The notes under the pieces were generated by a model. It worked only from the letters and a program-made list of their open reading frames with translations, had not been told where the DNA came from and searched no databases. From an uncultured Clostridia bacterium (GTDB lineage: Bacteria > Bacillota > Clostridia > TANB77 > CAG-508), in assembly GCA_934162535.1 (NCBI GenBank), contig CAKPJC010000006.1:12148-76147 (forward strand): a stretch of DNA of 64,000 bases. The letters are read 5' to 3'. The position numbers and the translations under genes were made by a program. This document shows positions 6,860 to 45,830 of this stretch, piece by piece. Numbering within the stretch: position 1 is the stretch's first letter; every line of letters starts with the position of its first letter.

Positions 6860-6871
6860 CTTTCATACTCC

Positions 6872-25104: not shown

Positions 25105-26022
25105 CTAAGTTCTTCCTTTCAATATTTCATCAACATTGTCTATTCCTTTTGTAGCGTCTAACCATATTGTTTGTTTGTTTTTTCTAAACCATGTTAGTTG
25201 TCTTTTGGCATATCTTCTCGTTTCCATTTTTATTTTTTCTATCATTTCTTGTTTTGTGCATTTGTTTTGTAGATATTCTACTACTTCTTTGTATCCTAGT
25301 CCTTGCATTGCTGTTGGGAATTCTGTGTATTTTTTTAGTAGATTTTCTACTTCTTCTATTAACCCTTGTTCTATCATTATGTCTACTCTTTTGTTTATTC
25401 TTTCATATAGTTTTTCTCTTTCCATGTTTAGTGCATATACTTCATAGTCGTATTTTACTCCATTTTTTCTTGATTCTATTTCTTGTTGTGTTTTGTTTTT
25501 TCCTGTTGCATGATATATTTCTAATATTCTTAGTATTCTTTTTTTGTCATTTGGACTTATTTTTTGTATTGCTTGTTCATCTATTTTTTTTGCCTCATTG
25601 TATAGTGTTTTTAGTCCTTCTTTTTCGACCCTTTCTTCTAATTCTTTTCTATATTTTTCGTCTAGTTTTATGTCTTGATATTCTATTCCATATATTAAAC
25701 TGTCAATATATAAACCTGTTCCACCTACTACTATTGGTGTTTTTCCTTTGGATAGTATTTCTTCTATTGCGTTTTCTGCATCTTTTTTGAAGTCTGCTAC
25801 ACTGTATCTTTGGTTTGGTTCAACATTGTCTATTAAGTAGTGGGGTATTCCTTGCATCTCTTCTTGTGTTGGTTTTGCTGTTCCTATGTCCATGTCTTTG
25901 TATATTTGCATTGAGTCACTTGATATTATTTCTCCATTTATTCTTTTGGCTAGTTCAATTGATAATGCTGTTTTTCCTGATGCTGTTGGTCCACATATTA
26001 CTATTACTTTTGGCTTGTCCAT
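25105..26022 (-). CDS. miaA: tRNA dimethylallyltransferase
   Basis: 305 aa with the P-loop CGPTASGKT, SSDSMQIYKDMDIGTAKP, and RRYAKRQLTWFR. Confidence 0.93.
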   Translation of the reverse strand: MDKPKVIVICGPTASGKTALSIELAKRINGEIISSDSMQIYKDMDIGTAKPTQEEMQGIPHYLIDNVEPNQRYSVADFKKDAENAIEEILSKGKTPIVVGGTGLYIDSLIYGIEYQDIKLDEKYRKELEERVEKEGLKTLYNEAKKIDEQAIQKISPNDKKRILRILEIYHATGKNKTQQEIESRKNGVKYDYEVYALNMEREKLYERINKRVDIMIEQGLIEEVENLLKKYTEFPTAMQGLGYKEVVEYLQNKCTKQEMIEKIKMETRRYAKRQLTWFRKNKQTIWLDATKGIDNVDEILKGRT

Positions 26023-26039: not shown

Positions 26040-26471
26040 TTACATTTTGCTTGCTATTTCAAATATTCCTGTTTGTATGTCTTTTAAGAAATTGAATTCT
26101 GCTATACTTATTACTATCATTACTATTATAATGATTATTAATTTTTTTATTAGGTCTGATTTTTCTATTTCGTCAAATTTGTATTGACTCATTATTTTTC
26201 CTACATATGGCATGAATACTATTCCATTTATTGGTGTGAATACTAGTATTAGTATTTTACTTACTTCGTTTTTGAAGTCTAGGTTCACGTAGTTTAGTCC
26301 TTTTGATGATAGGTTGAATAACATTGTTGTTATGAACCAACTTATTAGTATTCCTCCTACACTTATTATTACTCTTTCCATTCCTTCATAGGCTTCTAAT
26401 CTGTACCATGTGTATCCTATTAGTACCATGAATAGTGCTATTACTACTATTATTATAAATGGTGTTATCAT
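26040..26471 (-). CDS. hypothetical 4-TM membrane protein
   Basis: 143-aa hydrophobic ORF packed between the L1 gene and miaA. Confidence 0.5.
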   Translation of the reverse strand: MITPFIIIVVIALFMVLIGYTWYRLEAYEGMERVIISVGGILISWFITTMLFNLSSKGLNYVNLDFKNEVSKILILVFTPINGIVFMPYVGKIMSQYKFDEIEKSDLIKKLIIIIIVMIVISIAEFNFLKDIQTGIFEIASKM

Positions 26472-26494
26472 TGTTTTTTCCTCCTTTTATTTTC

Positions 26495-27625
26495 TTAATC
26501 CATAAATTCTGTACGCCAATATTCTGGTATATTTTCATAATTATTTAATCCTGTTGCATTGTAATAGCATCCATATCCATCAGGTTCACCAATATAATCA
26601 TTTGTACTTCCATTTGGCACTCTTTTCCATAGTTTTATTGGCTCTCCTGTTAATCCTGTGCATTTGAGAAATGTACCTCTAAAAATAGTTACATTTAGGC
26701 AATTTGCAAATAAATTTTCTGGGATTCTTGTTAATGATGTACAGTATGCAAATGTTGTATAAAAAGTTGTTACATTTGGACAGTTTGCAAATAAATCTTC
26801 TGGAATACTTGTTAGTGATTCGCATCCATAAAATCCATCTGAAAAAACTGTTATTTTTTCAAAACTCTTTTCTGTTGGACTTGCTATTTTTCTTAATTTT
26901 GTACAACCTCTTAGGCATACTCTTTCTAACCCTGTTTCTCCCCATTGGATTATTTCAAGAATGTTGTCATTTCCATTGCAAATAATCCTTGTACATTTTC
27001 CTGTTATTGTGACTTTATAATCTTTGTTTTTTTCCGAGTATGTATGTGTTGGTGGATAAGCTAATGCAATTTTGCTTTTCGCACCATCATTTTGTATTAC
27101 ACTAGCATATTTTTTTTCTCCTGTATTCTTGTTTTCTGCTGTTGTTACCTTACCATCTCCCCAGTCAATAATTCTTCCTTCTTCAGTTTCCAATAATGGC
27201 AACCTCACTTCTCCAGTATCTCCTGAATTAACCAGCATTATTAATGCACTTTTGTCTACTTCTTCTCCATATGGTATCTCTCTTGTTCCTATTATTATTA
27301 TTTCTCTTTTTGTGTCTATTTCATTATCAAATACTTTATCTTCTTTTTTTAAATTTTCTAACATTTCTTCTTTTGATACTAGTGCATCATTTTTTCCTTC
27401 TAGTTCATTTTTCGTTTTTATATTTTCATTTTTTATCTTCCATAATTGCACTAATTCTTCTACATCTCCAGCTCTTGACTCGAGTTTTGCTTCATTTGCT
27501 TTTCCTATTATTCCATTGTCTCCTTTTAGCATTTGTATGCTTATTCCTGCTAATATCATTAATACTACGATTGTTACTACTAATGCTATTAGTGTTATTG
27601 CTTTTGAGCTTTTTATTCTGTTCAT
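26495..27625 (-). CDS. L1: surface-protein paralogue with pilin-like N-terminus and 27-aa LRR-type (BspA/LRR_5-like) repeats
   Basis: The start is taken at the second ATG, because GGAGG of atGGAGGaacaaaagATG gives ideal spacing. The track start is 27640. N-terminus MNRIKSSKA-ITLIALVVTIVVLMILAGISI. Repeats follow the pattern LFANCPNVTxFxxTFxxCTSLTxIPxx. The conserved C-terminus is GEPIKLWKRVPNGSTN.YIGEPDGYGCYYNATGLNNYENIPEYWR. Confidence 0.75.
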   Translation of the reverse strand: MNRIKSSKAITLIALVVTIVVLMILAGISIQMLKGDNGIIGKANEAKLESRAGDVEELVQLWKIKNENIKTKNELEGKNDALVSKEEMLENLKKEDKVFDNEIDTKREIIIIGTREIPYGEEVDKSALIMLVNSGDTGEVRLPLLETEEGRIIDWGDGKVTTAENKNTGEKKYASVIQNDGAKSKIALAYPPTHTYSEKNKDYKVTITGKCTRIICNGNDNILEIIQWGETGLERVCLRGCTKLRKIASPTEKSFEKITVFSDGFYGCESLTSIPEDLFANCPNVTTFYTTFAYCTSLTRIPENLFANCLNVTIFRGTFLKCTGLTGEPIKLWKRVPNGSTNDYIGEPDGYGCYYNATGLNNYENIPEYWRTEFMD

Positions 27626-27658
27626 CTTTTGTTCCTCCATCTCTTTTTTATTATTAGT

Positions 27659-27687
27659 ATATTATCATAACACATTTTATTTTTCAA
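27659..27687 (-). promoter_or_regulatory. promoter shared by all L-family genes and stubs (L1 copy)
   Basis: Minus strand: TTGAAA (27687-27682), 17 nt, TGaTAATAT (27667-27659). The same sequence sits upstream of L2 (29237-29265), L3, L4 and both 5' stubs. Confidence 0.55.
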
Positions 27688-27698
27688 TATTTTTGTAT

Positions 27699-27836
27699 GA
27701 ACAAATAAGAAAAATTGAAAATTTTTCTTTGATTTGTTCTCGCCCGATTTGAGTTTTCGACTAAAAGGAGAAAATCTCAAAGGACTAGCGATTGTAGCTT
27801 TTTATATACTATAAAAGTATTACTTTCCTAGTATAT
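27699..27836. repeat. 138-nt three-hairpin intergenic repeat, copy 1
   Basis: Made of three hairpins: GAACAAATaAGAAAAATT-gaa-AATTTTTCTTtgATTTGTTC, TTTGAGttttc...gaaaatCTCAAA, and TATATACTAGGAAAGTA..TACTTTCCTAGTATATA. The left arm of the third hairpin is degenerate in this copy. Confidence 0.7.
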
Positions 27837-27837
27837 A

Positions 27838-27874
27838 AAAAAATTGCCTTGAATTTAAAATTATAATTCAAGAC
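27838..27874 (-). terminator. terminator of L2 (T_L copy a)
   Basis: Minus strand: GTCTTGAATT-ataatttta-AATTCAAGGC followed by AATTTTTTT. Confidence 0.65.
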
Positions 27875-27883
27875 ATTCTTTCT

Positions 27884-27909
27884 AATTGTGCAACCACGGT
27901 TGCACAATT
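27884..27909. repeat. perfect 26-nt palindrome P_L (copy a)
   Basis: AATTGTGCAACC-ac-GGTTGCACAATT, located between the L2 stop and its terminator. Confidence 0.85.
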
Positions 27910-27979
27910 TATACTATTTAAACTTTTCTTCAATTTCATTTTTTATTTTTTTAATTTAGTACTATGGATAATGCTATTA

Positions 27980-29203
27980 TTATACCCCACTTAATGCTCT
28001 CCAATATTCTGGTATATTTTCATAATTATTTAATCCTGTTGCATTGTAATAGCATCCATATCCATCAGGTTCACCAATATAATTATTTGTACTTCCGTTT
28101 GGCACTCTTTTCCATAGTTTTATTGGCTCTCCTGTTAATCCTGTGCATTCGTAAAATGTACCTCTAAAATTAGTTACATTTGGACAATTTGCAAATAAGT
28201 TTTCAGGAATGCTTGTTAGTGATTTGCAATAACAAAACGTTCTTTCAAAACTTGTTGCATTTGGGCAATTCGCAAATAATGTTGATGGAATGCTTGTTAA
28301 TGATGTACAGTCTTCAAATGTTAATTCAAAAGTTGTTACATTTGGACAGTTTGCAAATAATGTTGATGGAATGCTTGTTAATGATGTACAGCCTGCAAAT
28401 GTACATGAAAAATCTGTTATTTTTTCAAAACTCTTTTCTGTTGGACTTGCTATTTTTCTTAATTTTGTACAACCATCTAGGCATACTTCTTCTAAACCTG
28501 TTTCTCCCCATTGGATTATTTCAAGAATGTTGCCATTTTCATATTCATCATTGTAAAGCTTTGTGCATTTTCCTGTTATTGTTACTATGTATTCTTTGTT
28601 TTTTTCTGGGTATGTATGTTCGGTATATTGGGAATCTATTTCTGCAATTTTATTTTTCACACTATCATTTTGAGTTACACTGGCATATTTGTTATTGTGT
28701 ATGTTTTTATCTCCTGTAGCTATTACTCCATCTCCCCAGTTTACTTTTGTGCTATCATCTATCTCTCCAGCTATCGGCAATTTCACTTCTCCAGTTTCTC
28801 CTGAATTAACTAGCATTATTAATGCTCTTTTGTCTACTTCTTCTCCATATGGTATTTCTCTTGTTCCTATTGTTATTATTTCTTTGTCTCTGTCTATTTC
28901 TTTTTCATATACTATTCCTTCTTGTATTAGTTTTTCCAACATTTCTTCTTTCGATACTAATGCTTCACTTGTTCCTGTTACTTCATTTTGTGTTTTTATC
29001 ATTTTGTTATTATTTTTCCACATTTTTACTTCTTCGTCTACATTCCCTGCTCTTGATTCTAGCTTCGCTTCATTTGATTTTGTTACTATTCCATTATCTC
29101 CTTTTAACATTTGTATGCTTATTCCTGCTAATATCATTAATACTACGATTGTTACTACTAATGCTATTAGTGTTATTGCTTTTGAGCTTTTTATTCTGTT
29201 CAT
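27980..29203 (-). CDS. L2: pilin-like N-terminus / LRR-type repeat surface-protein paralogue
   Basis: Same N- and C-termini as L1 with a different centre and one more 27-aa repeat. The track start is 29218. Confidence 0.75.
   Translation of the reverse strand: MNRIKSSKAITLIALVVTIVVLMILAGISIQMLKGDNGIVTKSNEAKLESRAGNVDEEVKMWKNNNKMIKTQNEVTGTSEALVSKEEMLEKLIQEGIVYEKEIDRDKEIITIGTREIPYGEEVDKRALIMLVNSGETGEVKLPIAGEIDDSTKVNWGDGVIATGDKNIHNNKYASVTQNDSVKNKIAEIDSQYTEHTYPEKNKEYIVTITGKCTKLYNDEYENGNILEIIQWGETGLEEVCLDGCTKLRKIASPTEKSFEKITDFSCTFAGCTSLTSIPSTLFANCPNVTTFELTFEDCTSLTSIPSTLFANCPNATSFERTFCYCKSLTSIPENLFANCPNVTNFRGTFYECTGLTGEPIKLWKRVPNGSTNNYIGEPDGYGCYYNATGLNNYENIPEYWRALSGV
28185..28430. repeat. 81-bp tandem coding repeats (LRR units) in L2
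   Basis: The sequence ggacaRtttgcaaataatgttgatggaatgcttgttaatgatgtaca... recurs with an 81-nt period. Confidence 0.7.
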
Positions 29204-29276
29204 CTTTTGTTCCTCCATCCCTTTTTTATTATTAGTATATTATCATAACACGTTTTATTTTTCAATATTTTTGTAT

Positions 29277-29414
29277 GAGCAAATAAGAAAAATTGAAAAT
29301 TTTTCTTTGATTTGTTCTCGCCCGATTTGAGTTTTCGACTAAAAGGAAAAAATCTCAAAGGGCTAGCGATTGTAGCTTTTTATATACTAGGAAAGTATTA
29401 CTTTCCTAGTATAT
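29277..29414. repeat. 138-nt three-hairpin intergenic repeat, copy 2
   Basis: Same length and sequence as copy 1, with an intact third hairpin (29381-29414). Confidence 0.7.
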
Positions 29415-29415
29415 C

Positions 29416-29648
29416 GTTCATTTGAGAAAATGTCTCAAAAATCATGTCTAATTTATTCCAATTTCCTTATTGACATTGAGCCTCTTATCCTTTGGAAACC
29501 TATTTTTGCTAAAAAGCTGTAAGCGTGATTTTATATAGCTTTTTAGACGCAAAAGCATACCAAAGGATATACTCAAAATCAATAAGTTTTCTCGGCATAA
29601 ATAAGACATTTTGTCAAATGAAAAGTTAAGACATTTTCATAAATGAAT
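29416..29648. mobile_element. MITE-like 233-bp element with terminal inverted repeats and a 6-bp flanking duplication
   Basis: Left end GTTCATTTGAGAAAATGTCT matches the reverse complement of the right end ATTCATTTATGAAAATGTCT at 17 of 20 positions. TATATC flanks both ends (29410-29415 and 29649-29654). The interior is a long imperfect palindrome (TATCCTTTGG...CTAAAAAGCT / AGCTTTTTAG...CCAAAGGATA). Confidence 0.55.
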
Positions 29649-29649
29649 T

Positions 29650-29706
29650 ATATCCTTTTAAATTTTCTCTTTTGTATTTTGTGTTTCTAATAATCGCAAA
29701 ACTCAT
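29650..29706 (-). pseudogene. MobV/Pre-type relaxase N-terminal stub
   Basis: My own translation from the ATG at 29706 (RBS GGAGG 29715-29719) gives MSFAIIRNTKYKRENLKGY. This resembles the MSxAVxRxQKxKxxNLxG start of MobV relaxases. The reading frame then runs into the MITE end and stops. Confidence 0.3.
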
Positions 29707-29729
29707 CTCTAAAACCTCCTTCTAAATTT

Positions 29730-30128
29730 TTAGCCGATTTTTTCGGCTCGTATAATGGGCGATAGCTTGGCAATACAATCAAAGCCTTCTTTTTCGTAAT
29801 CTCTTTGTTCAAAATTGCAAAGCCTTTTATTATTAGTATTTTTATATTTATTTATATTATATTTATTATCCTTAAACTTTTCTTCAATAGGTATTAACCT
29901 TCTCATATCTACTTCTTTACTATTTTCTTTATATACCATTTCAATATTTATATAACCTTTATCTTTTAATGAATTTACTAGCTTTGATACTTGTGTTACT
30001 GATATATTTAAAAGTTCGCTTATAGTTTTATTGGTACAAAAGCAATATTGTTTTTCTTTATCACTTAAATTTTTATCTGTTAATACTTCTATTGGAATCC
30101 ATAATCCTTTTAAGTTTAGACTTGACAT
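29730..30128 (-). CDS. helix-turn-helix protein (phage/plasmid replication-organiser-like N-terminal domain)
   Basis: 132 aa with WIPIEVLTDKNLSDKEK...ISELLNISVTQVSKLVNSLKDKGYI. Confidence 0.55.
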   Translation of the reverse strand: MSSLNLKGLWIPIEVLTDKNLSDKEKQYCFCTNKTISELLNISVTQVSKLVNSLKDKGYINIEMVYKENSKEVDMRRLIPIEEKFKDNKYNINKYKNTNNKRLCNFEQRDYEKEGFDCIAKLSPIIRAEKIG

Positions 30129-30241
30129 TTAATACCCCTCCTCTCTTTCAAATTCGTTCGCTTTATTTTGGCTTTATTTTCGTTTTTAAGATATAAATAA
30201 TATAAGTTTATATCTTGAAATTGTAGCCAAAAAATTTCCAT

Positions 30242-30278
30242 AAAAAAATCGCCTTGAACTTATTTCTAAATTCAAAGC
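30242..30278 (-). terminator. terminator of DUF1016 gene 1
   Basis: Minus strand: GCTTTGAA..TTCAAGGC followed by GATTTTTTT. The G-U pairs form only in the minus-strand RNA. Confidence 0.6.
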
Positions 30279-30292
30279 AATTTTTTATTTTG

Positions 30293-30319
30293 AATTTTCT
30301 CGACAGTGTCGAGAAAATT
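30293..30319. repeat. perfect 27-nt palindrome P_D1 (3' flank of DUF1016 gene 1)
   Basis: AATTTTCTCGACA-g-TGTCGAGAAAATT. Its first 23 nt are identical to 31063-31085 inside the gene. Confidence 0.85.
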
Positions 30320-30323
30320 TAGA

Positions 30324-31388
30324 TTACTCTTTATCTTCAATATTTTTTCTTTGTTCTAGTTGAACTTTAGCCTTTTCTATACTATCCATAAATTTTTGTT
30401 CTAATATTTCTTTTGGTACATATTCTGTCAAATATTGTGCAACATGTATTCCACTATTATCTAATTCTAGTAATTGTGCCATCATATCACTTTTTGTCGC
30501 ACATAATATGATTGCAATTGGTGATTCTTCTCCTTCTGCTTTTTCATATTTGTCTAACCATTTCAAATATAATTCAACCTGACCTTTATATTCTGGTCTA
30601 AATTTATCTAGCTTTAATTCTATAACTACTAACCTTTTCATTTTTCTATGATAGAATAATAAATCTATATAATAATCTTCTCCATCTATTGTTATTCTTT
30701 TTTGCCTAGCTAGAAAAGCAAAATCATTTCCCATTTCTAAAATAAACTTTTCTAATTCACTTATAATTGCATTTTCTAAATCTTTCTCGCTATAAGTGTC
30801 TTTTAAATCCAAAAAGTCTAATATATATGGATCTCTAAAAAATAAATTAGTTGTCATCTTGTTTTCTTCGTTTAGCAATTTCAAATCATTTACAATAGTC
30901 TGTTCTGGCATTTTAGATATTGCTGTTCTTTCAAATAATGCTGAGCCAATTCTTTCTCTTAATGTTCTAACTCCCCAAAACTCATTTTCACACATTGTTG
31001 TGTAGAAATCTCTTTTTAAACTATCTTTAACTTGTAATAGTTCAACAAAATGTGACCAACTTAATTTTCTCGACAGTGTCGAGAATTTTTGAAAATCTGG
31101 ATAATATTCATAGACTTTTAGCATTCTAAATAAATTTGCACTACTATATCCTCGTCCATATTCAACTGTTAACCTTTGACTTAACTTTTTTATTACAGCC
31201 TTTCCATATTCAGCTCTTTCATGATTTAAGACATTTTCAGTTATATCTTTTCCTATATTCCAATATAATATTGTCATTTCTTCATTTACTTTTAATGCTA
31301 CATTTCTTTTTGCTTTTTCTATTCTATCAACTATTTTATTATATAAATCATCTATATTTATGTTATCTATGTTCTCTAATTCGTTCAT
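30324..31388 (-). CDS. DUF1016/YhcG-family PD-(D/E)xK nuclease (copy 1)
   Basis: 354 aa. It has an N-terminal helical domain (MTILYWNIGKDI, LSWSHF) and a C-terminal nuclease core IDLLFYHRKMKRLVVIELKLDKFRPEYKGQVELYLKWL. Confidence 0.85.
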   Translation of the reverse strand: MNELENIDNINIDDLYNKIVDRIEKAKRNVALKVNEEMTILYWNIGKDITENVLNHERAEYGKAVIKKLSQRLTVEYGRGYSSANLFRMLKVYEYYPDFQKFSTLSRKLSWSHFVELLQVKDSLKRDFYTTMCENEFWGVRTLRERIGSALFERTAISKMPEQTIVNDLKLLNEENKMTTNLFFRDPYILDFLDLKDTYSEKDLENAIISELEKFILEMGNDFAFLARQKRITIDGEDYYIDLLFYHRKMKRLVVIELKLDKFRPEYKGQVELYLKWLDKYEKAEGEESPIAIILCATKSDMMAQLLELDNSGIHVAQYLTEYVPKEILEQKFMDSIEKAKVQLEQRKNIEDKE

Positions 31389-31402
31389 TTTTACCTTCTT
31401 TC

Positions 31403-31430
31403 TAATTTGGCAACAGCTGTTGCCAAATTA
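31403..31430. repeat. perfect 28-nt palindrome P_D1up (5' UTR of DUF1016 gene 1)
   Basis: TAATTTGGCAACAG/CTGTTGCCAAATTA. Confidence 0.85.
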
Positions 31431-31498
31431 CATTTTCTCTTTTATTAGTTCATACTATATCATAAAATTCAAAATTTTTCCATTAAATCTATAAATTT

Positions 31499-31891
31499 TC
31501 ACACATATATTAATTCATTTAATATAATCTCCTCTGCTTGTTTCTTAATTGTATTCATAGTTCCTACTCAATAAAGCATATCGGTATTTTTCATATCTTC
31601 TGTCAAATTACTTTGTGCTTTTAATTTATTAATTATTTCATCTACTCTTTTGGTAGCAGTTTCTTGTATTTCTTCTAAATGGTTTATAAGTGTATTTTCC
31701 ATAAACATTATTGTATATTCTGCTTTTTTATGTTCTTTTAAATAATTTAATCTCATTCTTCCGTATTTATTCAAATGTATTTTCTTTTGTTTTGGTAATA
31801 CTAAATTTGGAATATAATAATCTCCTTGTCTTACATATTCTATTCCTGTTCTTTCATCAATAAATCTTTCTTTTAATTCTTTGTTCTCCAT
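31499..31891 (-). pseudogene. TnpV-like transposon protein with an in-frame TGA (probable TGG to TGA)
   Basis: MENKELKERFIDERTGIEYVRQGDYYIPNLVLPKQKKIHLNKYGRMRLNYLKEH... matches TnpV of Tn4451-type elements. After the TGA at 31568-31570 the frame continues as VGTMNTIKKQAEEIILNELIYV, the usual TnpV C-terminus (..W-VG.MN.I...AEEIVL.E.I). Confidence 0.5.
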
Positions 31892-31940
31892 AATTCTTAA
31901 ATCTCCTCTCAATTTTTTAATTTTAATTTTTATTATAAAA

Positions 31941-31985
31941 TCAAAAAAAGATGAAATTGTTATTATTTTTTACAATTCATCTTTT
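31941..31985 (-). terminator. terminator after stub F1
   Basis: Minus strand: AAAGATGAATTGT-aaaaaataata-ACAATTTCATCTTT followed by TTTT. The duplicate lies at 35064-35108. Confidence 0.6.
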
Positions 31986-32018
31986 AAATATTTGAATATT
32001 TGAAAATTTATGATTTTA

Positions 32019-32141
32019 CTAACTTGTTTGTAGGAGGAAACCTTTGTTATTACTAGATTTTACATTTTCGTCATAAGAGAATATGGTTGTTACTACTAAT
32101 GCTATTAGTGTTATTGCTTTTGAGCTTTTTATTCCGTTCAT
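32019..32141 (-). pseudogene. F1: 5' stub of an L-family gene (40 codons) retaining the full promoter and RBS
   Basis: MNGIKSSKAITLIALVVT then unrelated TIFSYDENVKSSNNKGFLLQTS*. The upstream 100 nt are identical to the L-gene promoters. Confidence 0.55.
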
Positions 32142-32213
32142 CTTTTGTTCCTCCATCTCTTTTTATTATTAGTATATTATCATAATGCGTCTTGTTTTTC
32201 AATATTTTTGGAT

Positions 32214-32351
32214 GAACAAATAAGAAAAATTGAAAATTTTTCTTTGATTTGTTCTCGCCCAATTTGAGTTTTCGACTAAAAGGAGAAAATCTCGAAGGGC
32301 TAGCGATTGTAGCTTTTTATATACTAGGAAAGTATTACTTTCCTAGTATAT
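32214..32351. repeat. 138-nt three-hairpin intergenic repeat, copy 3
   Basis: Collinear with copies 1 and 2. It is absent from the otherwise homologous upstream regions of F2 and L3. Confidence 0.7.
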
Positions 32352-32352
32352 A

Positions 32353-32389
32353 AAAAAATTGCCTTGAATTTAGAATTATAATTCAAGAC
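32353..32389 (-). terminator. terminator of L3 (T_L copy b)
   Basis: Same hairpin plus T-run as 27838-27874. Confidence 0.65.
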
Positions 32390-32398
32390 ATTCTTTCT

Positions 32399-32424
32399 AA
32401 TTGTGCAACCACGGTTGCACAATT
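32399..32424. repeat. palindrome P_L (copy b)
   Basis: AATTGTGCAACC-ac-GGTTGCACAATT. Confidence 0.85.
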
Positions 32425-32494
32425 TATACTATTTAAACTTTTCTTCAATTTCATTTTTTATTTTTTTAATTTAGTACTATGGATAATGCTATTA

Positions 32495-33715
32495 TTATAC
32501 CCCACTTAATGCTCTCCAATATTCTGGTATATTTTCATAATTATTTAATCCTGTTGCATTGTAATAGCATCCATATCCATCAGGTTCACCAATATAATTA
32601 TTTGTACTTCCGTTTGGCACTCTTTTCCATAGTTTTATTGGCTCTCCTGTTAATCCTGTGCATTCGTAAAATGTACCTCTAAAATTAGTTACATTTGGAC
32701 AATTTGCAAATAATTTTTCAGGAATGCTTGTTAGTGATTTGCAATAAAAAAACGTTCTTTCAAAACTTGTTGCATTTGGGCAATTCGCAAATAATTTTTC
32801 AGGAATGCTTGTTAGTGATGTACAGTCTGCAAATGTTTCTTCAAAAGTTGTTACATTTGGACAGTTTGCAAATAAATCTTCTGGAATACTTGTTAGTTTT
32901 TCACATACAGTAAATCCATATGAAAAATCTGTTATTTTTTCAAAACTCTTTTCTGTTGGACTTGCTATTTTTCTTAATTTTGTACAATTTTCTAGGCATA
33001 CTGTTTCTAAACCTGTTTCTCCCCATTGGATTATTTCAAGAATGTTGTCATTTATTTCATCTCCATTGTAAATCTCTGTACATTTTCCTGTTATTGTTAC
33101 TATGTATTCTTTGTTTTTTTCCGAGTATGTATGTATTGGTATAGAAGCAGATGCAATTTTGCTTTTCGCACCCTCATTTTGTATTACACTAGCATATTTT
33201 TTTTCTCCTGTATTCTTGTTTTCTGCTGTTGTTACCTTACCATCTCCCCAGTCTACTTTTGTTCTATCATCTATCTCTCCAGCTATCGGCAATTCCACTT
33301 CTCCAGTTTCTCCTGAATTAACTAGCATTATTAATGCTCTTTTGTCTACTTCTTCTCCATATGGTATCTCTCTTGTTCCTATTGTTATTATTTCTTTTTT
33401 TCTGTCTATTTCTTTTTCATATACTATTCCTTCTTGTATTAGTTTTTCCAACATTTCTTCTTTCGATACTAATGCTTCACTTGTTCCTGTTACTTCATTT
33501 TGTGTTTTTATCATTTTGTTATTGTTTTTCCACATTTTTACTTCTTCGTCTACATTTCCTGCTCTTGATTCTAGCTTCGCTTCATTTGTTTTTGTTACTA
33601 TTCCATTTTCTCCTTTTAACATTTGTATGCTTATCCCTGCTAATATCAGTAACACTACGATAGTTACTACTAATGCTATTAGTGTTATTGCTTTTGAGCT
33701 TTTTATTCCGTTCAT
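32495..33715 (-). CDS. L3: pilin-like N-terminus / LRR-type repeat surface-protein paralogue
   Basis: The track start is 33730. The ends are shared with the other paralogues and the centre is distinct. Confidence 0.75.
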   Translation of the reverse strand: MNGIKSSKAITLIALVVTIVVLLILAGISIQMLKGENGIVTKTNEAKLESRAGNVDEEVKMWKNNNKMIKTQNEVTGTSEALVSKEEMLEKLIQEGIVYEKEIDRKKEIITIGTREIPYGEEVDKRALIMLVNSGETGEVELPIAGEIDDRTKVDWGDGKVTTAENKNTGEKKYASVIQNEGAKSKIASASIPIHTYSEKNKEYIVTITGKCTEIYNGDEINDNILEIIQWGETGLETVCLENCTKLRKIASPTEKSFEKITDFSYGFTVCEKLTSIPEDLFANCPNVTTFEETFADCTSLTSIPEKLFANCPNATSFERTFFYCKSLTSIPEKLFANCPNVTNFRGTFYECTGLTGEPIKLWKRVPNGSTNNYIGEPDGYGCYYNATGLNNYENIPEYWRALSGV

Positions 33716-33788
33716 CTTTTGTTCCTCCATCTCTTTTTATTATTAGTATATTATCATAATGTGTCCTATTTTTCAATATTTTTGTATT

Positions 33789-33827
33789 AAAAAATCGCCT
33801 TGAATTTAATTTCTTAAACTCAAAGCG
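33789..33827 (-). terminator. terminator of DUF1016 gene 2
   Basis: Minus strand: CGCTTTGAGTTTA-agaaat-TAAATTCAAGGCG followed by ATTTTTT. Confidence 0.6.
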
Positions 33828-33856
33828 AAAATTTTTAATTTTAATAAAACCTTTGT

Positions 33857-33884
33857 AAAAATTCCAGACGCGTCTAGAATTTTT
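33857..33884. repeat. palindrome P_D2 (3' flank of DUF1016 gene 2)
   Basis: AAAATTCCAGACG/CGTCTAGAATTTT with one mismatch. Confidence 0.75.
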
Positions 33885-33887
33885 ATA

Positions 33888-34922
33888 TTATTCATTTTCT
33901 TCTTCAATTATATCAATATGCAAGTTCAAATCTTCTTCTGTTGGTAACACTTCTAAAATGTCTTTTGGTAATACCTTTGATATTTCATAAGAACTAACTC
34001 CTATTGGTTTGTTAATATCTCTTAATGAGTACTCAACTGAAAACTTTGTTTTTTCTCTACATAATATAATTCCAATTGTTGGATTATCACTATCTGTTTT
34101 TATTAAATCATCAACTGCTGATAAATAAAAATTTAATTTTCCAGCATATTCTGGTTTATATTCAGTATTCTTTAATTCTACAACTATATAGCAATGTAAT
34201 TTAGTATGATAAAATAACATATCTATAAAATAATCTTTATCATCTACCGAAATTTTATACTGATTTCCAATAAAACTAAAACCATTTCCTAATTCCAGTA
34301 AAACTGTTTTTATTCTTTCGACCATTGCTTTTTCTAATTCTGTTTCTATAAAACTTTCTTTTAAATTTGACAAGTTCAAAATATATGGATCTTTCATCAT
34401 ATCTTTTGCTAGCTTGCTTTGTGGTGCTTGTAATGTATCTTGAAAATTATTAGGTTTATCCCCTAAAACTTGGCGTGTATATAAATCACTTTTGATTTGA
34501 AATGCTAAATCATCATAACTCCATCCATTTATTGAAGTCTGCTCTATATACCACTCTCTTTGTTCTTCGTTTTTTATCTTGCTAAAAATTAATATATTGT
34601 GTGACCAAGGTATCTTTTCAGAAATTTTTTTAAGGTTACTATTATTTTTACATTCTAAATAATATTTTTTCATATTAAGAAGATTTCTTTCTGAAAACCC
34701 CTTCATATTAGGAAAATTAACTTTTAGTTCTATTGATAAATTGTTTATAAAACTATTCCCATATTTAGAATTTTCGTCTATTACTTGTCCCAAATAACAA
34801 TATAACGCCAACATTCTTCTATTTGCACTTTTATAAATATCATACTGTGCATTTAATATTTCATTTTTTATGTCTTTAAATACTTCTTTAAAATCTTTTT
34901 CTAACATTTGATTTTCTTCCAT
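33888..34922 (-). CDS. DUF1016/YhcG-family PD-(D/E)xK nuclease (copy 2, divergent from copy 1)
   Basis: 344 aa with IPWSHN and IDMLFYHTKLHCYIVVELKNTEYKPEYAGKLNFYLSAV. Confidence 0.85.
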   Translation of the reverse strand: MEENQMLEKDFKEVFKDIKNEILNAQYDIYKSANRRMLALYCYLGQVIDENSKYGNSFINNLSIELKVNFPNMKGFSERNLLNMKKYYLECKNNSNLKKISEKIPWSHNILIFSKIKNEEQREWYIEQTSINGWSYDDLAFQIKSDLYTRQVLGDKPNNFQDTLQAPQSKLAKDMMKDPYILNLSNLKESFIETELEKAMVERIKTVLLELGNGFSFIGNQYKISVDDKDYFIDMLFYHTKLHCYIVVELKNTEYKPEYAGKLNFYLSAVDDLIKTDSDNPTIGIILCREKTKFSVEYSLRDINKPIGVSSYEISKVLPKDILEVLPTEEDLNLHIDIIEEENE

Positions 34923-34979
34923 ATACTACCTCTTTTCTTCAATTATTTAAGTTAAAAATTTATATTTCAATGATTTTCT

Positions 34980-35007
34980 AAAATTCGCAGATGCGTCTGC
35001 GAATTTT
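34980..35007. repeat. palindrome P_D2up (5' UTR of DUF1016 gene 2)
   Basis: AAAATTCGCAGA-tgcg-TCTGCGAATTTT. Confidence 0.8.
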
Positions 35008-35063
35008 AAATGTTTTTGATTTATTAGTATTATAGCATTTATTTCCAAATATTTCATTATAAA

Positions 35064-35108
35064 TTCAAAAAAAGATGAACTTGTATATATTTTTTACAAT
35101 TCATCTTT
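35064..35108 (-). terminator. terminator after stub F2
   Basis: Duplicate of 31941-31985. Confidence 0.6.
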
Positions 35109-35143
35109 CAAATATGTGAAAATTTATGATTTTACTAAATTGT

Positions 35144-35257
35144 TTATAGGAGGAAACCTTTGTTATTACTAAATTTTACATTTTCGTTATAAGAGAACAA
35201 TGTTGTTACCACTAATGCTATTAGTGTTATTGCTTTTGAGCTTTTTATTCTGTTCAT
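35144..35257 (-). pseudogene. F2: second 5' stub of an L-family gene (37 codons) with intact promoter
   Basis: MNRIKSSKAITLIALVVT then TLFSYNENVKFSNNKGFLL*. The break point and tail are the same as in F1. Confidence 0.55.
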
Positions 35258-35330
35258 CTTTTGTTCCTCCATCTCTTTTTATTATTAGTATATTATCATA
35301 ATGCGTCTTGTTTTTCAATATTTTTGTATT

Positions 35331-35367
35331 AAAAAATTGTCTTGAATTTAGAATTATAATTCAAGAC
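35331..35367 (-). terminator. terminator of L4 (T_L copy c)
   Basis: GTCTTGAATT..AATTCAAGAC plus a T-run on the minus strand. Confidence 0.65.
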
Positions 35368-35376
35368 ATTCTTTCT

Positions 35377-35402
35377 AATTGTGCAACCACAGTTGCACAA
35401 TT
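35377..35402. repeat. palindrome P_L (copy c, one mismatch)
   Basis: AATTGTGCAACC-ac-AGTTGCACAATT. Confidence 0.8.
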
Positions 35403-35469
35403 TATACTATTTAAACTTTTCTTCAATTTCATTTTTTATTTTTTTAATTTAGTACTATGGATAATGCTA

Positions 35470-36768
35470 TTATTCAAGTGATTCTCTCCAATATTCCGGT
35501 ATATTCTCATAATTATTTAATTCTGTTGCTTTGTAATAGCATCCACATCCATCAGGTTCACCAATATAATTATTTGTACTTCCGTTTTGCACTCTTTTCC
35601 ATAGTTTTATTGGCTCTCCTGTTAATCCTGTGCATTTGTAAAATGTACCTACAAAATTAGTTACATATAGGCAATTTGCAAATAATGTTGATGGAATGCT
35701 TGTTAATGATGTACAGCCTGCAAATGTTACTTCAAAAGTTGTTACATTTGGACAATTTGCAAATAATGTTGATGGAATGCTTGTTAATGATGTACAATCT
35801 ACAAATGTTGCTTCAAAAGTTGTTACATTTGGACAATTTGCAAATAATGTTGATTGAATGCTTGTTAATGATGTACATTCTGCAAATGTTCCATAAAAAG
35901 TTGTTACATTTGGACAGTTTGCAAATAAGTCTTCTGGAATACTTGTTAATGATATACTTTCATAAAATCCATATGAAAAATCTGTTATTTTTTCAAAACT
36001 CTTTTCTGTTGGACTTGCTATTTTCCTTAAATTTATGCATCCTGCTAGTTTTACATCTTCTAACCCTGTTTCTCCCCATTGAATTATTTCAAGAATGTTG
36101 TCATTTTCATATCCATTGTAAAGTTTTGTGCATTTTCCTGTTATTGTTACTTTATAATCTTTGTTTATTTCTGGGTATGTGTGTTCTATTTGTTGTGGAG
36201 GCATCTGTGCACTTTTATTTTTAGTACTATCATTTTGAACTATATTTGCATATTTTTTTCCTTCTGTATTTTTGTTTTCTGCTGTTGTTACCTTACCATC
36301 TCCCCAGTCAATAGTTATTCCTTCCTCAGTTTCTAATACTGGCAATTTCACTTCTCCAGTATCTCCTGAATTAACTAGTATTATTAATGCTCTTTTGTCT
36401 ACTTCTTCTCCATATGGTATTTCTCTTGTTCCTATTGTTATTATTTCTTTGTCTCTGTCTATTTCTTTTTCATATACTATTCCTTCTTGTATTAGTTTTT
36501 CCAACATTTCTTCTTTCGATACTAATGCTTCACTTGTTCCTGTTACTTCATTTTGTGTTTTTATCATTTTGTTATTATTTTTCCACATTTTTACTTCTTC
36601 GTCTACATTCCCTGCTCTTGATTCTAGCTTCGCTTCATTTGATTTTGTTACTATTCCATTATCTCCTTTTAACATTTGTATGCTTATTCCTGCTAATATC
36701 ATTAATACTACGATTGTTACTACTAATGCTATTAGTGTTATTGCTTTTGAGCTTTTTATTCTGTTCAT
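35470..36768 (-). CDS. L4: pilin-like N-terminus / LRR-type repeat surface-protein paralogue (largest repeat count)
   Basis: The track start is 36783. It contains SLTSIPSTLFANCPNVTTFE(V/A)TF..CT repeated. Confidence 0.75.
   Translation of the reverse strand: MNRIKSSKAITLIALVVTIVVLMILAGISIQMLKGDNGIVTKSNEAKLESRAGNVDEEVKMWKNNNKMIKTQNEVTGTSEALVSKEEMLEKLIQEGIVYEKEIDRDKEIITIGTREIPYGEEVDKRALIILVNSGDTGEVKLPVLETEEGITIDWGDGKVTTAENKNTEGKKYANIVQNDSTKNKSAQMPPQQIEHTYPEINKDYKVTITGKCTKLYNGYENDNILEIIQWGETGLEDVKLAGCINLRKIASPTEKSFEKITDFSYGFYESISLTSIPEDLFANCPNVTTFYGTFAECTSLTSIQSTLFANCPNVTTFEATFVDCTSLTSIPSTLFANCPNVTTFEVTFAGCTSLTSIPSTLFANCLYVTNFVGTFYKCTGLTGEPIKLWKRVQNGSTNNYIGEPDGCGCYYKATELNNYENIPEYWRESLE
35672..35995. 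repeat. four 81-bp tandem coding repeats in L4
   Basis: Units start at 35672, 35753, 35834 and 35915 (caatttgcaaataatgttgatgg...) and are near-identical to one another. Confidence 0.8.
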
Positions 36769-36965
36769 CTTTTGTTCCTCCATCTCTTTTTTATTATTAA
36801 CATATTATCATAATGTGTTTTATCTTTCAATATTTTTGGAACATTTTTTATCTTATGCTATTGTATTTCACGTTTTTATATACATTTTTATATAAAATAT
36901 ACTATGTCAAGAAGTAGATACGAAAAAAGACTGTAAATTATATAAACTCACAATCTTTTATATTA

Positions 36966-39308
36966 TTATTTTCTTGCAAATTTTCTTTCAATATCATATT
37001 TAGACATTTTTATCGCTGTTGGTCTTCCATGTGGACATGTGAATGGATTTGGTAATTCTAATAATTTATCCATTAAGCTATCAACTTCTTCTTTAGTTAA
37101 TGCCATGTTTGCTTTTACTGCTGCTTTACAAGCAACTGTTGCAATAAATCTTTCTTCAACTTCTTGTTTTGCAGTTCTTGATACTGAATTTATCTCGTCT
37201 AGTGTTTCCAAAAACATTTCTTTTGTTTCTAGGTCTAAACACATTTCTGGTACACCTGTAAGTTTTATGGTGTTTTCCCCAAATTCTTCTAACATGAACC
37301 CTGCTTTTCTAAACATTTTCATGTTGTCTCTTGCTATTTCCATTTCCTTGTGTGTTAATGTTATAATATCTGGTAATAACATTAATTGAGAGTCTTTGTT
37401 TTCATCATTGTAGTAATTTGCTTTTACTTTTTCATATAATATTCTTTCATGTGCTGCATGTTGGTCTATTATATACATTTCTTTGTCTATTTCTATTATT
37501 ATGTATGTTTTGAATACTATTCCAATAAATTTGTACGTTGGTTTTTTGTATTCTTCAATATTTTCAAATACTGATATGTTTTCTGCTGTTGCTATATCTT
37601 GTGCATCTTCTCCATCATTTTCTTTTTCTTCCATATCTAAGTTGTGCCCTCTAACTGGTTTTGTTCCAAATAGTCTTAGATACATTTCTTCAAACTCTTT
37701 TGAATATTCTCCACTACTTTCTTGCTCTGCTGTTTTTTCACTCTCATTTTCTTCTTGAAGTGCTTTTGGCAATTCTTCTTCATTGTCTTTGTTTGGTTCT
37801 AATGCTTTTTCTACCTCTTCTTTTAGGTTTATTGGCTTTTGGTTTGCTTTTGCAATTTCTTCTAATAAGTCAACTTTTAACTCTGGTTGTTTTGTTTCTT
37901 CTTTTGAAGTTTCCTCTTCTGCTTTTTCTGTTTTGTATTCTTCGTTTTCTTCTTCAACCGGAATTGTTGTATCTTCTGCATTTGTTGTATATTTTAATTC
38001 TTTTTCTTGCTCCAATTTTGCTTTTAATTCAGGTGATTCTTGTATTAGCTTGTCTTTTATTTCTTGTAATTTTCTTAGTACTTCTTGGCTTTTTTCTATT
38101 TCTGACATTCCAGCTCCATTTAATATCCCTGATGTTGGTATTTCCGGAGTAGTTGTGCTTGTATTTGTTGTATGCCTTAATGATTCTGGTATTCCATTTT
38201 CTTTTCTTGCTTTGTATATTTGTTCTACTATTGTTTCTTCTCCATTTTTGTTTTTGTTTCCAAATAGTCCACTTTCTGTCCTTGACATACTTGATGTATG
38301 GTCTGTGTCTGCTACAAGTTCGGATTTTAGTAATGTGTCTTTTATTGCATGATATACTGCTTTGAATACTACATTTTCTTCTTCAAATCTTACTTCAAGT
38401 TTTGCTGGGTGCACATTTACATCTACTTTGCTTGGGTTCATGTCTATGTTTAGTATTAGAAAACTAAATTTTCCAATAGGTATCATTCCTTTGTATGCTC
38501 TTTCTGCTGCTGATGATAATGATTTGTCTTTTACATATCTTTTATTCACAAAGAATAATTGGTTTGACCTGTTTGAACGTGCTATTTCTGGTTTTCCTAT
38601 TACTCCATATATGTGCATTCCTTCATATTCATAGTCTGTTGGTATTACTCCTTGTGCAATGTCTTTACCATATATGCTGTATATTACTGATTTCAAGTCA
38701 CCATTTCCATTTGTTTGTATTATTGTTTTTCCTGTGTTTACTAGCTTTATTGCTATTTCTGGATGTACAAGTGCAATTCTTGTTACTGCATCTTCTATAT
38801 ATCCTGCTTCTGTAAAGTCTTTTTTTAGAAATTTGTATCTTACTGGTGTATTATAAAATAGGTTTGTTACTGTTATTGTTGTTCCATTTGCACAACCTGT
38901 TTCTCCTTTTTCTAGGACTTTTCCACCTTCTACTACTATTCTATATCCATTTGCTTGGTTTGCTGGCTTTGATACCATTTCTACATTTGCTATTGCTGTT
39001 ATACTTGCAAGTGCTTCTCCTCTGAACCCCATTGACATTACTGTGTTTAAGTCGTCTGCACTTCTTATTTTACTTGTTGCATGCCTTTCAAATGCCATTT
39101 CCATGTCATCTTCTGCTATCCCTTTTCCATTGTCTGTTACTTTTATGTATGATATTCCTCCATTTTTTATTTCTACTGTTATGTTTGTTGCTCCTGCATC
39201 TATAGAGTTTTCTACCATTTCTTTTATTACTGATGCTGGTCTTTCTATTACCTCTCCTGCTGCTATTTTGTTTATTGTTAAGTCATCTAATAATACTATA
39301 TTTCCCAT
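36966..39308 (-). CDS. mutL: DNA mismatch repair protein MutL
   Basis: 780 aa with INKIAAGEVIERPASVIKEMVENSIDAGA, MGFRGEALASI, a long acidic linker, and a C-terminal dimerisation/endonuclease region (DQHAAHERILYE, CPHGRP). Confidence 0.92.
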   Translation of the reverse strand: MGNIVLLDDLTINKIAAGEVIERPASVIKEMVENSIDAGATNITVEIKNGGISYIKVTDNGKGIAEDDMEMAFERHATSKIRSADDLNTVMSMGFRGEALASITAIANVEMVSKPANQANGYRIVVEGGKVLEKGETGCANGTTITVTNLFYNTPVRYKFLKKDFTEAGYIEDAVTRIALVHPEIAIKLVNTGKTIIQTNGNGDLKSVIYSIYGKDIAQGVIPTDYEYEGMHIYGVIGKPEIARSNRSNQLFFVNKRYVKDKSLSSAAERAYKGMIPIGKFSFLILNIDMNPSKVDVNVHPAKLEVRFEEENVVFKAVYHAIKDTLLKSELVADTDHTSSMSRTESGLFGNKNKNGEETIVEQIYKARKENGIPESLRHTTNTSTTTPEIPTSGILNGAGMSEIEKSQEVLRKLQEIKDKLIQESPELKAKLEQEKELKYTTNAEDTTIPVEEENEEYKTEKAEEETSKEETKQPELKVDLLEEIAKANQKPINLKEEVEKALEPNKDNEEELPKALQEENESEKTAEQESSGEYSKEFEEMYLRLFGTKPVRGHNLDMEEKENDGEDAQDIATAENISVFENIEEYKKPTYKFIGIVFKTYIIIEIDKEMYIIDQHAAHERILYEKVKANYYNDENKDSQLMLLPDIITLTHKEMEIARDNMKMFRKAGFMLEEFGENTIKLTGVPEMCLDLETKEMFLETLDEINSVSRTAKQEVEERFIATVACKAAVKANMALTKEEVDSLMDKLLELPNPFTCPHGRPTAIKMSKYDIERKFARK

Positions 39309-42006: not shown

Positions 42007-42633
42007 TTACTTTTCCATATTTATTATTCTTTGTACATATTCTTCTAGTGTGTTTGTGTGTTTTACATCATTGCCTTTGTTTATTTCTTTTGGTTGTTCT
42101 GCTAGTCTTAGTCCATTGAAGTATTTGTCTGGTATGTTTTTGTATTCTTCTCTTTTTACTAGCTCTCTATCATCTTTTATGAATTTCATATCTTTTATTT
42201 CATATAAATTGTTTAGTCTTAATGATGTTAGTATTCCATTTGCAAATAGGTTCATATGGTAATCTGTTATTATGTTGTAGTATTCTATTTTTTCATGTAT
42301 TACTTCTCTTTCAGTTATTCTTGTTGTCGTTCCATCTTCTAAAAATACTCTTGTTCCTAGTGGTGTGTCTTGTTCGTTCATTCCATATAAAAATTTTTGT
42401 TTATCTATATTGAATACTCTATGGTCTCCGATTGTTTTTAGTTCTCTTCCATCTTCAAATTTTATATTGTTGTATTCATTTGCTTCTTGTACTTTTTTTA
42501 TCCATAGTGGTTTTGCTGTTGAGAAACATCCATTGTCAAAATCCCATACTAGTAGCTGGTCTTCATATGTTATGTCTTCTATATTTTTGGTTGTGTGATT
42601 TGCTAGTGTGATTTTAGTTCCTTTGGCTAGACA
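42007..42633. repeat. 3' homology block shared by H1 and H2 (Hint domain plus tail), copy 1
   Basis: Collinear with 43886-44512. The last 110 or so codons are identical at protein level. Confidence 0.85.
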
Positions 42634-45778: not shown

Positions 45779-45830
45779 ATTTTTTTCTCCTCTTTTGATT
45801 TTATATTTATATAATATCAATAAATTTTAT
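45188..45830. repeat. 5' homology block, copy 2
   Basis: See 43198-43840. Confidence 0.85.

Follow-up and report, generated by a model that had tools for sequence, protein, structure and literature searches.

Tandem genes for leucine-rich repeat (LRR) surface proteins are found in the Listeria internalin clusters (inlGHE and inlC2DE), in which the genes have their own promoters and conserved ends, the number of LRRs varies and recombination has produced strain-specific chimeras. Cassette-based antigenic variation is exemplified by Neisseria pilE/pilS, Borrelia vlsE and Mycoplasma vsp/vsa. In this report, we describe a tandem array of LRR protein genes between mutL and miaA in a 64-kb stretch of low-GC DNA from an uncultured human-gut Clostridia bacterium (hereafter the window, to which all coordinates refer), the whole locus being read on the minus strand. 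Two further groups of repeat proteins offer points of comparison. BspA-like LRR proteins form large, fast-evolving surface-protein families in mucosal microbes such as Trichomonas vaginalis (PMC2843621). The PARCEL (DUF285, TIGR02167) proteins of Mollicutes and other organisms carry tandem, variable-number amphipathic repeats of 25-27 residues, are targeted to the membrane, and are linked to mobile elements and shuffled intragenomically (PMC2996958).

Against this background, we consider it probable that the locus is a tandem array of genes for surface proteins, particular to this species and variable among its strains, which owes its diversity to ordinary homologous recombination, and the array provides a well-supported example of a known way in which bacteria vary their surface. 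Like the internalin clusters, it consists of tandem LRR genes with their own promoters and conserved ends, and chimeras arise by recombination between neighbours. The proteins share the LRR fold only: the LRR class is different, and Listeria uses a Sec signal with an LPXTG or GW anchor, whereas an N-terminal pilin-like helix is found here. The repeat type and the predicted solenoid are those of BspA-type proteins (LRR_5; Tannerella forsythia BspA, the T. vaginalis family and the Joint Center for Structural Genomics structures 4h09, 4gt6 and 4fs7), although in the present proteins the LRR stretch is short (2-4 repeats) and follows a pilin-like leader, a helical stalk and a PKD-like domain, and the genes form a single tandem array at one chromosomal site. 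Tandem LRR surface genes with recombinant chimeras, large BspA-like families and mobile-element-linked PARCEL proteins were already known; what is new is the host lineage, the protein architecture, the strain-resolved evidence and, in two units, the exchange of the gene body for a candidate defence cassette from the same break point onwards.

The array occupies approximately 26495-36965 and comprises six head-to-tail units, with all genes on the minus strand. Downstream from mutL (36966-39308; NCBIfam TIGR00585, E 1.8e-166), the order is L4, stub 2, YhcG 2, L3, stub 1, TnpV, YhcG 1, HTH, L2, L1, a gene for a membrane protein of 143 amino acids (aa; 26040-26471) and miaA (25105-26022; Pfam IPPT, E 4.6e-92), where L1 to L4 denote the full-length LRR genes. 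The wider window is core chromosome, including secA, ftsK and murE-mraY-ftsW-murG. A scan of species-representative genomes yielded 25 loci from uncultured Clostridia metagenome-assembled genomes, one of them a closed genome of 1.57 Mb, with MutL proteins 55-78% identical to that of the window. In all 24 related-species loci that reach past mutL, this gene is followed directly by miaA-HlyD-like-sepF-divIVA, preceded in the closer relatives by the 143-aa gene, and none of the 24 has an L-like gene within 10 kb. Because these 24 species have mutL-miaA without L genes, the island is, judging from gene order, an insertion specific to this species. The original prediction had mutL and miaA split by about 11 kb of inserted DNA; the split stands, as relatives have none, whereas the extent must be shortened, because the 143-aa gene, whose product has no Pfam or NCBIfam match, is kept between mutL and miaA in at least seven related species and is therefore native rather than part of the insert.

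All six units begin with the same module, consisting of a TTGAAA-17 nucleotides (nt)-TG-extended TAATAT promoter-like site, a GGAGG ribosome-binding site, a start codon and a leader. A 41-mer of the leader module occurs in six copies at one mismatch or fewer against none expected, and repeat families D6 and D9 give the same copies. Five TTGAAA-17-TAATAT sites with the TG were returned on the minus strand by a motif scan (36830, 35318, 33776, 32202 and 29265), and the sixth (27687-27659) was read from the D9 repeat-family alignment. Because the scan shows no enrichment over shuffles in this AT-rich window (78 sites versus 70.5), the promoter argument rests on conservation across units and not on the scan.

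The four complete proteins measure 376-432 aa, and their genes were delineated from open reading frames (ORFs), Pfam matches and repeats. L4 (35470-36783, with its promoter-like site at 36802-36830 found by both motif scan and D9) encodes four 27-aa LRR units and, from the second ATG at 36768, 432 aa. The L3 unit (32495-33776; promoter 33748-33776, coding sequence 32495-33730) encodes three LRR units and 406 aa from the second ATG; the L2 unit (27980-29265; promoter 29237-29265, coding sequence 27980-29218) three LRR units and 407 aa; and the L1 unit (26495-27687; promoter 27659-27687, coding sequence 26495-27640) two LRR units and 376 aa. The second ATG (MNRIKSSKAITLIAL...), which gives 432, 406, 407 and 376 aa for L4, L3, L2 and L1, is the likely start codon, as it lies 8 nt from the GGAGG and is the start that the gene callers chose in public assemblies. 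Tandem repeats of 81 bp are present in 2.1, 3.3, approximately 3 and 3.9 copies in L1, L2, L3 and L4 (89% matches in L4), corresponding to two, three, three and four LFANC motifs. The final 240 nt or so are 90-100% identical among the L copies. Most of the predicted anatomy is thus borne out, namely four full-length paralogues and two 5' stubs in one orientation; a TTGAAA-17-TG promoter shared by all six units; near-identical 3' ends; and a variable number of 81-bp (27-aa) repeats, up to four in L4. Near-identity of the 5' regions was claimed as well, and here the six shared promoter and 5' modules agree, whereas nt 120-330 of L1 are merely 70-80% identical to the other L genes in the window. 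Two YhcG genes, TnpV and the HTH gene are island content that the prediction lacked.

Perfect GC-cored palindromes of 26-35 nt lie in nearly every intergenic spacer of the island (27884-27909, 32399-32424, 35377-35402, 29382-29414, 31403-31430, 34979-35008 and 30289-30323) and are probably bidirectional terminators; terminator-like sites in the island number nine versus 2.5 expected, and some coincide with cassette borders. Antisense ORFs of 179-226 aa run on the plus strand through the L genes, including the LRR repeats (27072-27752, 28689-29330, 33102-33746, and further 36272-36895, 28180-28719 and 35676-36224), and nothing was found to suggest that these are genes.

The sequences of the paralogues are clearly those of mosaics. 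Sliding identity shows that L2 and L4 are 100% identical over nt 1-390, whereas over nt 1080-1323 it is L2 and L3 that are 100% identical; L1 is closest to L4 over nt 420-480 and 98-100% identical to L3 over nt 480-540. Of 46 informative sites, L1 is grouped with L4 by 25 and with L3 by 20, the sites forming 12 runs along the gene (permutation p < 1e-4). For 12 distinct alleles, the Hudson-Kaplan minimum number of recombination events (Rmin) is 38, and in a test based on four gametes the compatibility of adjacent sites far exceeds that after permutation (p < 0.001). The family is also diverse beyond these alleles, with at least 35 clusters at 90% identity in a protein collection, each at least 60% identical to L4.

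Loci of other strains, all from human-gut samples, were retrieved by exact-protein look-ups. One of them (L001) shows 81 differences from the window across 21.3 kb: 73 lie in a patch at 27167-27529 within L1 and eight in the Flg_new paralogues upstream of secA, with none elsewhere. In L001 this patch is 98.5-98.8% identical to L2 and L3 and 82% identical to the L1 of the window, and it resembles L2 and L4 at its 5' end and then L3. Two assemblies from one BioSample, SAMEA4765940 (contigs L031 and L045), show 78 differences across 15.7 kb, 76 of them in the same patch; L045 carries the window-type L1 allele and L031 a converted allele slightly unlike that of L001. In a further locus (L034), L1 is the sole unit between mutL and the 143-aa gene and no cassette is present. 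This contig matches the window exactly from mutL into the 5' end of L4 and, over 11.6 kb, from the miaA side to just upstream of the L1 start, and the two exact stretches overlap at the junction in a 127-nt tract common to L4 and L1, an arrangement that either unequal crossing-over or a shortcut by the assembler would be expected to yield. Additionally, L032 has two full L genes before the first stub, and the first-position gene of L029 encodes 380 aa with 78% identity to L4. Last-position alleles in other strains encode 376, 377, 379, 389 or 407 aa; taken together, first- and last-position alleles span 376-435 aa and 2-4 LRR units. Unit number ranges from one to at least six across strains, and the flanking proteins stay 99-100% identical.

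One contig (L128), from another strain of the species, has a different arrangement. Just upstream of its last L gene, at 6296-7564, lies a gene with the same leader (MNRIKSSKAITLIALVVT...) and an unrelated 422-aa body without LRRs, and further upstream are ABC/FtsX, thioredoxin and SDF transporter genes, not mutL; this indicates other island content, a rearrangement or a misjoin.

Taken as a mechanism, the proposed explanation begins with the insertion of an array into the core chromosome between mutL and the 143-aa gene plus miaA. Diversity would then come from homologous recombination between units along their identical tracts of 127-390 nt, with gene-conversion patches of about 360 bp moving between units, unequal crossing-over altering unit number, and gain or loss of 81-bp units changing the LRR count; in two units, the L bodies would have been replaced by YhcG-nuclease cassettes and mobile-element remnants. 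Dependence on RecA, display at the surface, a binding function, simultaneous expression of the units, and host immunity or phage as the selective agent are presumed. The prediction of a substrate for gene conversion and repeat-number variation agrees with the mosaic paralogues, the 360-bp patches and the 2-4 LRR units, and its view of a surface-variation locus, not a simple duplication, is upheld in the form of a recombining family rather than a programmed switch. The checks that it proposed point the same way: sister genomes show no invariant array, 24 related species being empty and conspecific strains differing in unit number and alleles; the paralogues proved mosaic in recombination tests (runs test p < 1e-4; Rmin 38); and AlphaFold2 predicts the repeats, with high confidence, to form an LRR solenoid behind an N-in/C-out membrane helix.

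Several points weigh against this explanation. All strain comparisons involve short-read metagenome assemblies, many contigs break inside the array, and assembly may account for particular chimeric alleles and for the one-unit variant. Surface exposure and expression of the L proteins are presumed; nothing indicates expression switching, as a promoter is present on all six units. The L leader is below threshold in pilin hidden Markov models (HMMs), with Ala in place of both the Gly at -1 and the Glu at +5 (KA|ITLIAL). Finally, the ratio of nonsynonymous to synonymous substitution rates (dN/dS), which is 0.4-0.96 by region, is elevated without proving positive selection, and it fits relaxed constraint as well as diversifying selection; with no region-wide dN/dS above 1, positive selection is not claimed.

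The first of these points leads to the alternative that survives best, according to which the genes are a static paralogue family from old duplications, and the strain patches and copy-number differences are artefacts of short-read assembly across repeats. Contigs from many samples end in the conserved 5' region, the patch boundaries fall on tracts common to paralogues, and the one-unit contig, which a k-mer assembler built across a 127-nt repeat, has flanks equal to those of the window except at the junction. However, independent samples and assemblers reproduce L2, L3 and L4 identically, and both L1 alleles recur independently, the window type in L034 and L045 and the converted type in L001 and L031. 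No single donor matches the converted patch exactly (5-6 mismatches), and its versions in L001 and L031 are not the same; more divergent strains bear clearly different alleles, and the mosaic among the four genes of the window is independent of any strain comparison. We therefore regard this alternative as unlikely.

The stubs and their cargo bear on two other explanations. Stub 2 (35144-35318) and stub 1 (32019-32202) each retain the promoter and leader, are broken after approximately codon 18, and leave short ORFs of 37 aa (35144-35257) and 40 aa (32019-32141), respectively, followed by terminator-like hairpins at 35065-35110 and 31940-31985. In alignment, both match L up to ...GCATTAGT(A/G)GTAACAA ('...LIALVVT') and diverge from it at the same nucleotide. 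For about 150 nt after the break the stubs are 87% identical to each other, including the stop codon and the terminator-like hairpin, and this post-break sequence was found elsewhere only in arrays of the same species. The cargo beyond is unrelated. Behind stub 2 lies one YhcG/DUF1016 PD-(D/E)XK nuclease gene in place of an L body (YhcG 2, 33888-34922; YhcG_C E 1e-61, DUF1016_N, PDC-S02 E 5.3e-125). Behind stub 1 lie a TnpV-family gene (31568-31912; Pfam PF14198, E 1.3e-26), regarded as a mobile-element remnant, a second nuclease gene (YhcG 1, 30324-31388; Pfam, PADLOC PDC-S02 E 3.7e-123) and, last in the cassette, a Pfam-identified HTH_36/DnaD_N-like DNA-binding protein gene (29730-30128). 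The two nucleases are only 31% identical, and both contain DUF1016_N and YhcG_C (Pfam E 1e-35 to 1e-61) and are assigned by PADLOC to PDC-S02, which makes them candidate phage-defence genes. Shortly before the next promoter the sequence again matches the array spacer, for cassette 1 at the palindrome 29382-29414, which argues that the cassettes replaced L bodies and did not interrupt them.

Three types of body thus follow the promoter-leader, namely the LRR adhesins, the 422-aa body of L128 and the nuclease cassettes. This raises the idea that the promoter-leader module (approximately 130-390 nt) acts as a portable recombination 'socket', behind which unrelated bodies would be swapped by homologous recombination, possibly with a site-preferring break at codon 18. 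If so, an identical stub break before unrelated cargo would be the footprint of exchange and not of one old accident followed by duplication, and a single hotspot would couple variation of the surface (as phage receptor or IgA target) to turnover of phage-defence genes. We judge the idea decidedly unlikely. A general partnership between nucleases and such arrays was dropped as a candidate, with no YhcG or TnpV match in 80 metagenome loci bearing the same leader (618 kb). The TnpV-YhcG-HTH cassette was not matched in viral contigs, and in plasmids only distant YhcG sequences were found (64-72% identity, at most 39% coverage).

The same cassettes could suggest that the locus is a decayed mobile element or defence island, carrying the L genes as passengers that vary neutrally. 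TnpV, the HTH_36/DnaD_N protein and two PDC-S02-type nucleases would suit such an origin, as would the empty site in all related species, the presence of YhcG relatives on plasmids of many phyla and the frequency of such PKD-LRR modules in phage tail proteins. Against this, no integrase was found in the island (ORF inventory, Pfam and NCBIfam scans), no direct repeats flank it, the window contains no tRNA and no Rfam element was found, and island GC (0.23-0.32) resembles that of the flanks, so that the integrase, tRNA or direct repeats and deviant composition of an integrative element or classical genomic island are all absent. Furthermore, the cassettes lie inside L units whose bodies they replaced, which implies that the array is older than the cassettes; the one-unit strain has an L gene and no cassette; and the 80 other loci with this leader show no YhcG association. 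On balance, we find this origin quite improbable.

Programmed antigenic or phase variation, whether based on site-specific recombination, on inversion of a promoter or on silent cassettes that feed an expression site, is highly improbable: the constant ends and variable centres resemble cassette systems, and the stubs break at the same nucleotide and are 87-94% identical after it before unrelated cargo, yet no recombinase, invertase, integrase, reverse transcriptase, invertible element or promoter, silent cassette, tRNA or Rfam element was found in the island (ORFs, Pfam, NCBIfam and Rfam), whose ORFs are the L genes, the two YhcG genes, TnpV and HTH only, all six units have a promoter, ribosome-binding site and start in place of a single expression site, and the exchanged tracts have the variable end points that homologous recombination predicts. 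Like the Neisseria, Borrelia and Mycoplasma systems, the locus contains mosaic genes formed by conversion among linked paralogues with constant ends. Unlike them, it has no single expression site, promoterless silent cassettes or dedicated recombinase, and its stubs keep the promoter and lose the body, the opposite of pilS. The locus is not filed with programmed antigenic variation for these reasons, and the evidence supports a recombining multigene family and not a programmed switch.

Within this recombining family, the proteins appear to share one architecture, in which a short basic N-terminus and a hydrophobic helix of 21 residues precede a helical stalk; next come a PKD-like beta-sandwich, one loop of which is hypervariable, and BspA-type LRRs of 27 aa, two to four per protein, with a conserved C-terminal cap. 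LRR_5 (PF13306; gathering threshold 27.7 bits) matches L3 (30.3 bits) and L4 (30.6 bits) above threshold, the lower scores of L2 (25.2) and L1 (19.9) reflecting their fewer repeats. For L4, AlphaFold2 with 76 homologues gave a model with a mean predicted local distance difference test (pLDDT) score of 85.6, exceeding 90 over residues 250-437, with helices at residues 2-39 and 44-81 and a beta domain at residues 114-245, in which a low-confidence loop (170-195) is the most variable stretch of the family. Residues 250-437 are predicted with high confidence to form a BspA-type LRR solenoid with a C-terminal cap. A Foldseek search of the model against the PDB returned LRR proteins only, including the Eubacterium LRR protein 4h09, and a profile search returned LRR structures, including 4gt6 and 4fs7, together with weak matches to pilin N-termini. 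Among predicted viral structures (BFVD), the best matches are phage LRR, PKD and BspA-family proteins (E 5e-19 to 1e-10, TM-score at most 0.66 on the target), and the matches to phage PKD proteins support a PKD-like reading of the WGDG...HTY...VTITG motifs.

The LRRs and cap are most likely a ligand-binding, adhesin-like module. Residues 202-433 of L4 (window 35470-36170) align at 34% identity with the C-terminal end of a tail protein of 890 aa from Escherichia phage ukendt (Phapecoctavirus), whose gene (1048-3720 of L132) adjoins a tail-fibre gene, and similar matches of the LRR and cap module occur in Klebsiella and Synechococcus phage tail proteins; this likeness fits a binding role. The PKD and BspA-LRR modules are shared with phage tail and receptor-binding proteins, but the L genes are chromosomal and encode a membrane leader, and no phage structural genes lie nearby.

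The variable-number tandem repeats and membrane targeting also recall PARCEL proteins, as do the association with mobile elements and the shuffling within the genome, and the NCBIfam PARCEL model (TIGR02167; cut-off 30 bits) matches weakly. Only L4 reaches the cut-off (30.4 bits, versus 22.6-24.7 for the others), with stretches of only 12 residues matched, and PF03382 appears in more distant homologues only. Moreover, the canonical PARCEL repeat has 25-26 residues and reads W-D/N-TS-NVT-MxxMF...FNQDIS, whereas that of the L proteins has 27 and reads LFANCPNVTxFxxTFxxCTSLTSIP. The half-period of the 81-bp unit is 39/42 nt, and the unit is only weakly dyad-symmetric: its best reverse-complement match is 44/81 compared with 36.8 +/- 2.5 in shuffles, 1.6% of which reach 44.

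The N-terminal leader resembles the class III (prepilin) signal of pilins without being assignable to them. Against N_methyl (PF07963; cut-off 21.2 bits) the L leader scores 14.5 bits (E 0.026), NCBIfam gives no match, and the matches of the L profile to the N-termini of geopilin, MshA and PilA are marginal (E 0.002-0.6); no prepilin peptidase or pilus assembly genes were found in the 64-kb window. An N-in/C-out topology is the simplest that we can infer, given the basic N-terminus and the single 21-residue hydrophobic helix. In gut and rumen metagenomes, the leader is likewise found at the start of many unrelated proteins: among 600 pattern-matching stretches examined, at least 378 were confirmed by tblastn, and in the 80 leader loci kept (L048-L127) most matches span approximately residues 1-66 and the genes are often clustered. 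No curated family covers the module, and neither the locus nor the leader turned up in a search of the literature.

In two pairwise comparisons, the strains differ by 0 or 2 substitutions over approximately 15-21 kb outside paralogous genes and yet a 360-bp block in the array has been swapped. Together with the contig that carries one unit in place of six and is identical to the window over 11.6 kb on the miaA side, such swaps indicate that the variable genes change much faster than the point-mutation clock. The locus documents, down to coordinates, a hypervariable set of surface-protein genes in a gut Clostridia lineage that is uncultured and has a small genome. Such loci break metagenome assemblies and confound strain tracking, and they are candidate targets of IgA or phage selection. 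The widespread pilin-like leader module and the putative PKD and BspA-LRR binding module common to phage tail proteins both merit characterisation.

Several further observations concern the leader and the neighbouring genes. The leader module ([GA]ITL[IV]AL..T...ILAG...G.NGI..KA.EAK) precedes other C-terminal domains elsewhere, often in several genes in a row, for example in L065 (10001-16856) and L125. Within the window, the same leader is borne by two Flg_new (Listeria-Bacteroides repeat) paralogues upstream of secA (42007-43788 and 43886-45820, minus strand), in which it reads MRKTKNNKG|ITLIAL, with Gly at -1 and Ala at +5, and scores 20.9 bits against the N_methyl cut-off of 21.2. Between the window and L001, the two copies share four identical substitutions at matching positions spaced by 1990 nt, which looks like concerted change or homogenisation; across strains these paralogues are 92-98% identical, compared with 99.7-100% for SecA. 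The adjoining gene for a DUF4143 protein (45858-46568), which is 236 aa here and was called as 202 or 208 aa in L029, L041 and L042, may be a truncated ATPase gene. Lastly, the 780-aa MutL (36966-39308) has a long, acidic, low-complexity linker between its N- and C-terminal domains, and this linker is poorly conserved, several relatives aligning at residues 1-335 and 535-780 only.

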